Virus record (IMG/VR): IMGVR_UViG_2913167280_000003
Location: 27,299-91,298 of that record
Source: a virus
Taxonomy: Duplodnaviria > Heunggongvirae > Uroviricota > Caudoviricetes
Length of the DNA: 64,000 bases
Direction: 5' to 3' (one strand)
A program made the position numbers and the translations under genes. This document shows positions 26,508 through 30,022 of the stretch, in pieces. Position 1 is the stretch's first letter. The number at the start of each line of letters is the position of its first letter. Under the pieces are notes generated by a model that did not search any database, had not been told where the DNA came from, and worked only from the letters and a program-made list of their open reading frames with translations.

Positions 26508-26863
26508 TGTTTTTTATGTCGTGTTTTCGGTACCATTCAGGCATCGCCCTTCAATGGGCATTAGTTAGGAGTCGTCAGATGCAGATGGAGCTAATAAGCC
26601 GCAAGGAGTTCGATAGTCGGGTAACTAGCGGTGAACTCGACAACTTGCAGGCTATCAAGGTGAAAGAAGGCTTTTGCCTCATTGGGAATCAGAGCGGAAC
26701 AAATCGCGTTTTTATGCTTCGCCGTACGGATCTGAAGCCATTTGTCTGGAAGAACGAAATTGGTCCCAGCTCATACGCTCAAACGAGGGGGTGCCATAAC
26801 CTGACCTTCTTCTACAAAGACGAGCTTTCTGTGGTTGATATTCAAGGGTTACAACATGTTTAA
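26507..26863 (+). CDS. small ORF upstream of rdgC-like gene (real start possibly [11 protein letters not shown])
   Basis: ORF in track directly after operator; no motif recognised. Confidence 0.3.
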
Positions 26864-27761
26864 GCACTGGAAAAACATTTCTATTTATAAAGTTTCTCGT
26901 GAGGCGGATCTGACCGACTTAGAAGATAAAAATAAAATGATCCTATTCACGCCATGCGGTAGCCAGGATATGGCCAAGTTCGGTTTTGTATCGCCATTTG
27001 GTGATAATTCCGAAGTGATCGCTATGCATGGAAATGGCTTTATCCTTGTTGAAGCAAAGCGCGAAACAAAAATTCTTCCCTCGCCGGTTATCCAGCGAGC
27101 TATTCAAGAGAAAATTGAAAAACTTGAGCAAGAACAATCGCGTAAACTGAAGAAAACAGAGAAGGACTCCCTGAAAGACGAAGTTCTACATTCTCTTCTG
27201 CCACGGGCTTTTTCAAAGTTTTCTGTTATCCAGGCGATCTACGACGGTTCAACTAAACGCATCTATATCAATGCCAGCGCGCGGCAGGCAGAGGATATGC
27301 TCGCGCTTATGCGTAAGTCTCTGGGTTCTCTTCCTGTTGTGCCACTAAGTGTTGAAAATCCCATTGAGTTAACGCTGACCGACTGGGTACGTGATGCTAG
27401 TGCTCCACAGGGATTTCAAATGGGGGATGCGGCAGAACTTAAGGCAGTGCTTGAGGATGGCGGTATCGCCCGAGTGAAAAAGCAGGATTTGGGAAGCGAT
27501 GAAATTTCCACACACCTGGAAGCTGGCAAGCTCGTCACAAAGTTGGCACTCGACTGGCAGAACCGCATTAAATTTACACTGGACCATAACTTCAGCCTTA
27601 CCAGCGTCAAATTTGCGGATGAATTACTTGAGCAGAACTCTGATATTGATAGTGAAGATGTTGCGCAGCGACTGGACGCAGATTTCTTCCTGTTAACCAG
27701 TGAAATTTCGTGCCTGGTTGATGCTCTGGTAAATGCCCTGGGCGGAGAGGCTAAGCAGTGA
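26856..27761 (+). CDS. rdgC: RdgC-like recombination-associated protein (302 aa)
   Basis: Start [16 protein letters not shown] and motifs [47 protein letters not shown] closely resemble E. coli RdgC. Confidence 0.7.
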
Positions 27762-30022
27762 GAGAGCTGTGCTATGGATCTGTTTGCAGTGGAATTGAAG
27801 CCGCGAGCATTGCCTGGGAACCGTTGGGTATGCGTCCGGCGTGGTTTGCTGAGATCGAGCCTTTTCCATCTGCCGTTCTTGCGCACCGCTGGCCCCATGT
27901 CGCCAACCTTGGCGACATGACAAAACTCGCCCAAAAAGTCCAGGCAGGAGAAATTGAAGCCCCTGATATGCTCGTCGGGGGTACGCCTTGTCAGGCATTC
28001 AGTATCGCGGGCTTACGTGGTGGGCTTGATGATGAGCGCGGCGCGCTAACTTTGAAGTATGTGGAGCTTGCAAATGCAATTGACGACAAACGGGCTGAGT
28101 CCTTCCTCAAACCAGCAGTTATCGTCTGGGAAAATGTCCCAGGAGTCCTGTCATCAGCAGATAACGCGTTCGGATGTTTCCTTGCCGGATTGGCTGGAGA
28201 AGATGCGCCATTCGAACCTGGTGATCGACCTGAATCACGAAAAAGTAACACGTTCTGGCGGTGGGATGTCAAAACCGGTTGCCATGCTCCAAAGTGGCCG
28301 CAGTGTGGTTGTATTTATGGACCGCAGCGAAAAGTGGCCTGGAGAATCCTTGATGCCCAATACTTCGGAGTGGCACAACGACGCCGACGCGTGTTTGTTG
28401 TCGCAAGTGCTCGAACAGACCTCGATCCCGCAACGGTACTTTTTGAGTTCGAAGGCGTGCGCCGGAATATTGCGCCGAGCCGAAAAAAGAAGGAAATCGC
28501 TTCCGCCATTATTGCAAATGGCGCTGCAATCAGTGGCGAAAGCCTAAATCCATGCCTACACGCTGACATGCCCCCCGGCATGAAATCGACGAAAGCCGTA
28601 AACGCTTTCAGGATGGCGGCATTTGGGGAATATATTGACGATGAAACCGCATCGACAGTAAAGGCAAGAGACTTTAAAGATGCCACTGACCTTGCCGTTT
28701 TTAGCAGCACAGGAGCAGGTTTTTGGTCAGAAGGGCATGGTACATTGCGGGCACGTGAGCAAGAAAGCCATGAGCATCTTGTTACATTGGCTTTTCCTGA
28801 GCGTATGAGCGGTACACAACATGCTGCAACTAAGAATACTTCACCATCTCTAATGGCTAAAAATCCAACAGCCCTTTGCTATGAAGTAAGAAACGCAGAA
28901 GTAGCTGTCCGCCGTCTTACTCCTGTCGAATGTGAAAGGCTGCAAGGTTTTCCTGATGGGCATACGTTGATCTCGACGGAAAAGCGTAAAAAAGTTAATT
29001 CAGATGAACTGGCATATCTTCGCAATCACTATCCAGATTTAAGCGAAGAAGAGGCCGCGATGCTTGCAGCTGACGGACCGCGTTACAAAGCGATCGGAAA
29101 TAGTATGGCAATACCAGTAATGCGCTGGATTGGCGATCGGATTACTAAGGCTGCATGTCGGCAAAAAGAAGGGAGTGAAACAAAAGAGCGAAAGGTTAAA
29201 CCAGCGGCAGAATTCGAACGGCCCATATTCAAATGGGCTGGTGGAAAATTTGGTGTTCTGGAACAGATCTTTCGCTATTTGCCAGAAGGGAAGCGCCTGA
29301 TTGAACCTTTCGTTGGTGGCGGAGCTGTCTTCATGAATGCCGGATACCAGGAAAATCTGCTAAATGATGTGAATGCTGACCTGATTAACTTTTACAAGAC
29401 TCTGCAACGCGAGGCGCATTCACTTATCACTCTGGCACATCGTTTCTTCCTGGACTACAACACCCAGGAGGGATTCCTGGCAGTACGGAATGCGTTTAAC
29501 AAACAAGTCTATGATGATTTACATCGCGCAGCGGCGTTTTTGTTCCTGAACCGACATTGTTTTAATGGATTGACGCGCTACAACCAGGCCGGTGAGTTCA
29601 ATGTCGGGTATGGGAAGTATAAGTCTACGCATTTTCCATTACAGGAGATGGAAGCCTTCCTCGGTGCGGAAGGGCGGTCTGAGTTTGTATGCGGTGATTT
29701 TGCAGCGGTGATTGAAGCTGCCGGAGAAGGAGATGTCATCTTTTGCGATCCGCCGTATGAACCGCTCCCCAATACAGAGGGGTTCACGAACTATTCCGGT
29801 CATGACTTTAAGTTTGAAGAGCAAAAACGCCTGGTGTCTCTGTTGACGGATGCTCATCGCCGAGGTGCAAAGGTTCTCATTACTAACAGTGGCGCGCCAA
29901 ACATCAGAGAACTTTATCAGGACAGTGGCTTCAGAGTGGAACCTCTTTTTGCCAGACGTTCTGTGTCTTGTAAGGGAGACACTCGTGGTGTTGCTCATGA
30001 CGTTATAGCCATATTGCTCTAA
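27758..30022 (+). CDS. dmt: Dmt bifunctional DNA methyltransferase (N-terminal C5-cytosine MTase-like, C-terminal Dam-like N6-adenine MTase; 754 aa)
   Basis: PCQ and ENV motifs ([19 protein letters not shown]) N-terminally, DPPY motif (FCDPPYEP) C-terminally; 754 aa as P1 Dmt. Confidence 0.85.

Follow-up and report, generated by a model that had tools for sequence, protein, structure and literature searches.

An RdgC homologue and a two-domain methyltransferase in the uhr-hrdC-dmt operon of a P1-like phage-plasmid

The stretch of viral DNA analysed here (IMG/VR record IMGVR_UViG_2913167280_000003, positions 27,299 to 91,298; 64,000 nucleotides, hereafter the window) belongs, to judge by its sequence, to a P1-like (Punavirus) phage-plasmid. 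It carries hrdC, the gene for a homologue of the DNA-binding protein RdgC, and, overlapping its end, dmt, the gene for a methyltransferase with two domains. Together with the small upstream gene uhr these form the uhr-hrdC-dmt early-lytic operon already annotated in the P1 and P7 genome records; the feature is real and intact, but it is already known and adds nothing new. Probably, HrdC and Dmt share no dedicated link: the C1-repressed operon gives an RdgC-like protein and a methyltransferase common timing, and their genes overlap through ordinary compaction. What the lineages conserve is the placing of both genes in a single C1-repressed early operon, and with it their common timing.

The 3.8 kilobases (kb) around the feature match P1 (AF234172) with 96.3% DNA identity, 100% coverage and the same gene order, and they lie comparably near P7, RCS47, JL22 and others. 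The succession upfC (minus strand), Op68/Pdmt, uhr, hrdC, dmt, Oban is that of the P1 operon. (Statements about P1 are taken from GenBank feature notes, and positions were transferred to the window by alignment.) All three proteins align with their P1 counterparts free of gaps, at 99% (Uhr), 98% (HrdC) and 97% (Dmt) identity. The block itself is common: it is present in 567 of 5,426 complete Escherichia coli genomes, where 571 of the 583 places are plasmid-borne, and in 697 plasmids of PLSDB. Published annotations of P7-like plasmids list dmt and rdgC with the same four-nucleotide overlap (PMC5786510).

HrdC, Dmt and Uhr

An earlier note on this DNA described a clear RdgC-like protein, and the profile searches bear it out. 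HrdC matches the Pfam RdgC family PF04381 (E 6.1e-98, 328 bits against a cut-off of 25), its residues 5-298 aligning to profile positions 3-298 and covering 295 of the 298; among the NCBIfam models it exceeds the cut-offs of the equivalog NF001462 (377 bits; cut-off 330) and of NF001464 (289; cut-off 227). It also aligns end to end with the crystallised E. coli RdgC, 2OWL (E 6.7e-112, 61% identity). In the E. coli protein, mutagenesis has shown that the fingertip residues R97, K98, K100 and K101 are needed for loading onto circular DNA, and that the gate and horseshoe residues form the dimer interface (PMC2965237). All ten mutationally tested residues are kept: the fingertip residues as R96, K97, K99 and K100 of HrdC; the gate residues R118 and F120 as R117 and F119; and the horseshoe residues Q212, E218, H222 and K227 as Q210, E216, H220 and K225. 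The 61% identity suggests that HrdC, too, would bind double-stranded DNA as a ring dimer and inhibit RecA. The activities of RdgC, as summarised in PMC11077077, include inhibition of RecA strand exchange, of the RecA ATPase and of LexA cleavage.

The earlier note had also raised a frameshift as a way in which hrdC might prove inactive, and had proposed looking for the same gene in P1. P1 hrdC is that gene. The reading frame in the window is unbroken, and it encodes 301 amino acids in 78 of 80 P1-like viral contigs. The ratio of nonsynonymous to synonymous substitution rates (dN/dS) against P1 is 0.10 for hrdC, 0.16 for dmt and 0.03 for uhr; none of the three is disrupted, and all evolve under purifying selection, strong in the case of uhr. 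Elsewhere, hrdC is given in two parts, RdgC1 and RdgC2, in the annotation of two P1-like phages (ON470615.2 and ON470617.2), and one of these records also divides dmt into separate cytosine and adenine methylase genes. These split annotations point to frameshifts, real or sequencing-derived.

Dmt has the C5-cytosine and Dam-type domains that were first noticed from its motifs. Its amino-terminal part matches PF00145 (E 4e-36, 125.5 bits; cut-off 22) from residue 8 onward, and residues 493-726 match PF02086, the D12/Dam family (E 1.3e-55, 189 bits; cut-off 22). The NCBIfam models TIGR00571 (dam, 248 bits; cut-off 115) and TIGR00675 (dcm, 116.8; cut-off 100.65) agree, and by its translation the protein retains the catalytic motifs of both methyltransferase classes. 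The P1 GenBank note describes dmt as bifunctional, methylating N6 of adenine in GATC. That record and PMC12707154 are the sources for GATC specificity, which the window protein, 97% identical, probably shares. Packaging of P1 requires GATC methylation of the pac site, according to work cited in PMC12707154.

The C5 domain varies among relatives. When the window was compared with related loci (L003-L082), the segment between motifs VIII and IX took four lengths (66, 148, 201 and 256 amino acids), assembled from shared blocks such as MAHGQGGAEIK..SPTLTCNHEAPIV and TLRAR.QESHEHL; the window has the 148-residue P1 type. A second kind of variation is a 341-residue intein with a LAGLIDADG endonuclease. 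Of 79 Dmt proteins compared, namely the intein-free one of the window and 78 from related P1-like loci, 19 carry it. The intein sits directly before the catalytic cysteine of the PCQ motif (GGTP|CFTAGH...VVHN|CQAFS), scores above cut-off for Pfam LAGLIDADG_3 and Hint_2, and occurs with three variable-region types, as expected of a homing element. Examples among the related loci are the dmt genes at L005 5903-8944, L032 5903-9190 and L065 5903-9349. A 1,023-bp additional segment in E. coli plasmid matches is consistent with the same insertion, and RefSeq names the intein-bearing protein merely 'Dam family methyltransferase'.

Uhr is an orphan protein, confined to P1-like elements. The label 'nucleoside triphosphate pyrophosphohydrolase' that it carries in RefSeq and PHROGs was set aside, as Pfam, NCBIfam and a fold search do not support it. 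In PADLOC, neither HrdC nor Uhr matches any defence-system model, and for Dmt the only matches are to generic models of orphan or type II methyltransferases.

The hrdC-dmt junction and shared control

The two open reading frames (ORFs) reported in the earlier note, hrdC and dmt, are confirmed by the ORF listing and by direct reading (Table 1). The overlap between them is also as it described, four nucleotides shared by a stop and a start, except that the letters are GTGA (27758-27761) rather than ATGA. The junction reads GGAGAGGCTAAGCAGTGAGAG, with the hrdC stop TGA at 27759-27761 and the dmt start GTG at 27758-27760; the P1 annotation begins dmt at the same GTG. An ATG start was considered and rejected: the ATG at 27774 is out of frame, and the first in-frame ATG (27830) is codon 25, where a start would delete C5 motif I, the Pfam match beginning as early as residue 8. 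The GTGA is invariant in 78 of the 80 P1-like viral contigs.

Both hallmarks of translational coupling are therefore found here: the stop/start overlap, and a ribosome-binding site within the upstream gene. The latter, GGAGAGG, is formed by codons of the conserved HrdC carboxyl terminus (GGEAKQ). Of the nine other P1-like lineages compared, six have an equivalent GG(G/A)GAGG ahead of the gene that follows hrdC; in the other three (L093-L095) it is weaker. The Shine-Dalgarno sequence thus appears as a by-product of the codons for the conserved RdgC carboxyl terminus (GGEA), so that most genes directly after hrdC inherit a ribosome-binding site. Upstream, uhr and hrdC overlap by eight nucleotides (ATGTTTAA, 26856-26863). 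Such overlaps are routine in P1: between 62 and 76.5 kb of its genome, 9 of 13 same-strand neighbouring gene pairs overlap (CDS rows counted by hand).

RNA folding adds nothing special at either junction. The region 27690-27830 folds at -41 kcal/mol (z 0.25 against shuffles), and the uhr/hrdC junction gives z 0.19, nothing beyond its shuffled controls. Scans for promoters and terminators within hrdC-dmt returned counts not above those of shuffled sequences; an Rfam scan of 26000-33500 at gathering threshold gave no match, and the 'dicF-like region' of P1 has no Rfam-level match in the window. A late promoter predicted inside dam of P7 was set aside as a prediction only.

The operon begins with a C1 operator and a sigma-70 promoter (Table 1); the promoter was placed from the P1 annotation, to which the window aligns without gaps and with no change in either hexamer. 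At a distance of 80-89 nucleotides before uhr, 8 of 10 P1-like loci examined (P1 counted) have a site resembling a C1 operator. At the other end, the divalent operator Oban opens the next C1-controlled unit; its two matches are 30013-30029 (plus strand, no mismatches) and 30024-30040 (minus strand, two mismatches). Measurements in P1 agree with this layout. By reverse transcription quantitative PCR, dmt is a C1-controlled lytic gene, induced along with ssb and kilA at lytic induction (PMC4713147), and in RNA-seq of P1vir the hrdC and dmt transcripts change together (bioRxiv 10.64898/2025.12.28.696737).

Table 1. Features of the window mentioned in the text (window coordinates; residues for protein domains)
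Feature	Position	Strand	Remarks
upfC homologue	26125-26409	-	small PAAR-motif protein; divergently transcribed neighbour of the dmt operon
C1 operator Odmt (formerly Op68)	26491-26507	+	ATTGCTCTAATAAATAT; one mismatch to C1 consensus; same sequence as the annotated P1 and P7 sites
Promoter Pdmt	26507-26536	+	sigma-70; -35 TTGTTT 26507-26512, -10 TACCAT 26531-26536
uhr	26579-26863	+	94 amino acids; last 8 nucleotides overlap hrdC start; start position conserved with P1
hrdC	26856-27761	+	301 amino acids; RdgC-family DNA-binding protein (predicted); ORF listing, Pfam and NCBIfam
Shine-Dalgarno-like GGAGAGG for dmt	27744-27750	+	within hrdC, 7 nucleotides before GTG; read directly
dmt	27758-30022	+	754 amino acids; GTG start; 97% identical to P1 Dmt, gap-free
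Dmt C5-cytosine domain	residues ~1-470		PCQ 77-79, ENV 125-127, QRRRR 207-211, GNS 447-449; read from translation
Dmt variable region	28470-28910		residues ~237-384; without intein
Dmt Dam/D12 domain	residues ~487-752		FVGGG 518-522, DPPY 664-667; read from translation
C1 operator Oban a/b (formerly Op72)	30013-30040	.	divalent; overlaps dmt stop; placed as in P1
tRNA-Thr(UGU)-like gene, interrupted	30699-31204		5' part (acceptor, D and anticodon arms) 30699 to ~30747; T arm and acceptor-CCA ~31177-31204
HNH endonuclease ORF	30751-31170		139 amino acids; phrog_2255
ORF	31753-32463	-	phrog_25194; no function assigned
ORF	32517-32849	-	phrog_34496; no function assigned

Taken together, these elements suggest how the operon would work. 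Ribosomes that finish hrdC would begin dmt by way of the GTGA and the internal Shine-Dalgarno sequence, so that both proteins are made together. As an RdgC-like ring dimer, HrdC would clamp double-stranded DNA without sequence preference and compete with RecA; during the burst of phage replication it would thereby damp RecA-driven strand exchange, LexA cleavage and SOS induction. The Dam domain of Dmt would methylate GATC for pac cleavage, and the C5 domain would supply protective cytosine methylation.

Linkage across lineages and competing explanations

Does the partnership of hrdC and dmt mean more than shared timing? The comparison covers eleven P1/D6-like lineages, with HrdC identities of 57-100% for the P1-like members and 51% for D6. 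In all eleven, hrdC and a Dam-type methyltransferase gene lie in one operon, on the same strand and within three genes of each other. Within that frame the immediate neighbour changes, and one or two other ORFs intervene between hrdC and dmt in seven lineages. Where HrdC is 80 or 77% identical, hrdC abuts dmt with a 1-nucleotide overlap; at 75, 73, 72 and 70%, a conserved ORF of 191 codons lies between the two genes and overlaps both; and at 65, 62 and 57%, hrdC is followed by a gap, then by one or two ORFs, then by dmt. Throughout the P1-like lineages, dmt always overlaps its preceding gene.

The phage D6 departs furthest from the window. Its hrdC is followed by the methyltransferase genes orf64 and orf63, overlapping and on the same strand. 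These are two separate genes: the product of the first (226 amino acids, phrog_757) has no Pfam C5 match, and the separate Dam-type protein is 69% identical to the carboxyl-terminal half of Dmt. Moreover, D6 has no uhr, and the block lies directly after the tail genes 7-24-6-5. Homology of orf64 to the 191-codon ORF of other lineages was considered and rejected (E 0.037).

The intervening ORF deserves a remark of its own. P1, P7 and the window lack it; where present (191-198 amino acids) it always overlaps the dmt start by four nucleotides. It is found at L084 4903-5478, L091 5903-6478, L092 5903-6478, L097 4903-5478, L093 5989-6585, L094 6416-7012 and L095 6733-7326. Its products share an invariant W-x-DCDG motif, and four of six members resemble nucleotide-diphospho-sugar transferases weakly and below threshold (PF03407; best E 0.022). 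The ORF may encode a small glycosyltransferase coupled to the methyltransferase.

More widely, 451 phage records contain an RdgC homologue, those of Vibrio, Pseudomonas and Klebsiella phages included. In the rows checked (the 60 top rows and 60 more spread over the ranking), a methyltransferase gene overlaps rdgC only in P1-like phages and D6. In five unrelated phages, examined over 3 kb on either side, rdgC lies in a replication or recombination neighbourhood and overlaps or abuts small ORFs that are not annotated as methyltransferases.

The coupling thus looks generic: overlaps are common in P1, the overlapping partner varies from lineage to lineage, and rdgC of unrelated phages overlaps ORFs of other kinds. 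For the same reasons, the overlap does not carry the conclusion that the earlier note drew from it, a coordinated control of recombination and DNA modification.

Several observations weigh against so plain an account, with its RdgC-like HrdC, its two-domain Dmt and its merely incidental overlap. The linkage in all eleven lineages, including D6 with its block elsewhere in the genome, exceeds what compaction alone predicts and leaves room for selected linkage. No occluding RNA structure that would make the coupling obligatory was found at the junction. A CRISPR interference screen of P1 in a dam+ host found uhr, hrdC and dmt all non-essential (PMC10695390); thus no phenotype anchors a role for HrdC, and the searchable literature yielded no biochemical or genetic test of the protein. 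For Dmt, the P1 record adds C5 methylation of cytosine only as 'perhaps', and we found in that literature no later test of 5-methylcytosine formation or its target.

The strongest competitor holds that hrdC and dmt are kept together because both act on one problem. HrdC might restrain RecA on phage DNA while Dmt alters its methylation, or, where altered Dam methylation promotes recombination or induces breaks, it might buffer those effects. The same-strand linkage in 11 of 11 lineages (HrdC 51-100% identical) is its best argument, all the more as it persists in D6 despite the different first methyltransferase and genomic position. A biochemical rationale is also at hand: Dam methylation reportedly enhances RecA assembly and strand exchange (PMC12403123), a conceivable reason for pairing methylation with a RecA antagonist and one that makes a deeper link between HrdC and Dmt thinkable. 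All eleven lineages are relatives, however, and may simply have inherited the arrangement; seven of them tolerate ORFs between the two genes; the overlapping methyltransferase is confined to P1-like phages and D6 among the sampled records; and the interference screen found both genes dispensable. No experiment on a functional interaction of HrdC and Dmt was found in the searchable literature. The linkage could reflect inheritance or selection, which these data cannot separate, but we regard a working partnership as unlikely. A specific form of it, in which the RdgC clamp holds RecA and the RecA-dependent P1 nuclease Ref off freshly replicated phage DNA until Dmt has methylated it, or offsets the stimulation of RecA by adenine-methylated DNA, seems quite unlikely.

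A different proposal gives HrdC the part of lambda RexA: instead of modulating RecA, it would bind DNA non-specifically and either bias the switch between lysis and lysogeny or exclude other phages. RexA is related by fold only, whereas HrdC shares 61% identity with E. coli RdgC, including all the ring-interface and fingertip residues; and exclusion and switch functions operate in the lysogen, where hrdC, behind a C1-repressed promoter, should be silent. With a lysogen-repressed promoter and a much closer kinship to true RdgC, such a role fits poorly, and we consider it very improbable.

Least credible of all is that hrdC is a passenger captured from an enterobacterial host and now neutral or decaying: chromosomal RdgC proteins of Enterobacterales do stand directly beneath the phage-plasmid clade in the match list, at about 60% identity, the gene is non-essential in the screen, and two records annotate it as split, but its dN/dS against P1, its full length in 78 of 80 related viral contigs, its retention in lineages down to 51% identity and its presence in 567 complete E. 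coli genomes speak for a maintained gene.

Flanking genes and relation to known systems

On the upstream side, about 80 nucleotides separate the start of the upfC homologue from Odmt. Past the end of dmt, the window and P1 part company. Compared with P1, the window has no intact tRNA-Asn, tRNA-Thr, plp, upl, tciABC, tRNA-Ile, ban (replicative helicase) or dbn; about 2.4 kb (30724-33105) stand in place of some 4.5 kb, and hold an HNH ORF and two minus-strand ORFs (Table 1). TciA, Ban and Dbn are encoded nowhere within the 64-kb window. As ban and its neighbours have been lost, the C1-controlled promoter Pban (30013-30040) is no longer upstream of ban.

The HNH ORF makes up nearly all of an insertion of about 410-430 nucleotides that interrupts the tRNA-Thr(UGU)-like gene. 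ARAGORN detects this gene in intron mode only, and its joined halves give a standard tRNA-Thr. With no space left for a group I ribozyme, the insertion resembles a homing-endonuclease gene lodged in a tRNA gene. Proteins of Felixounavirus (FelixO1-like) and Pectobacterium phages share 57-63% identity with the endonuclease; among 72,556 plasmids, only 7 show the interrupted arrangement.

The P1 genome record already names the hrdC-dmt pair, and annotations of hundreds of P1-like plasmids list it as a matter of routine. About one in ten complete E. coli genomes contains a P1-like phage-plasmid, and these elements spread resistance genes. If HrdC acts as proposed, a RecA antagonist made by the phage in the lytic phase would bear on transduction efficiency and on the SOS-linked effects of induction.

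The nearest known systems are P1 (AF234172 / NC_005856) and P7 (AF503408). With both, the window shares the uhr-hrdC-dmt gene order, the C1 operator, the promoter, the GTGA junction and the Oban operator at the dmt stop. It differs from P1 by about 4% DNA divergence, and P7 and many relatives have C5-domain variable regions other than its own.

For HrdC the reference is E. coli RdgC, a ring-shaped dimer that binds DNA and inhibits RecA, with which it shares a full-length alignment and the key residues. Unlike that protein, HrdC is phage-borne, C1-repressed and expressed in the lytic phase, with a methyltransferase gene downstream. For Dmt, a possible parallel is provided by the multispecific C5 methyltransferases of temperate Bacillus phages, which, as summarised in PMC12707154, carry several target-recognition domains on one polypeptide. 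The variable region of Dmt resembles such swappable domains, by analogy and as a lead only; in contrast to the Bacillus-phage enzymes, Dmt joins its C5 domain to a Dam domain.

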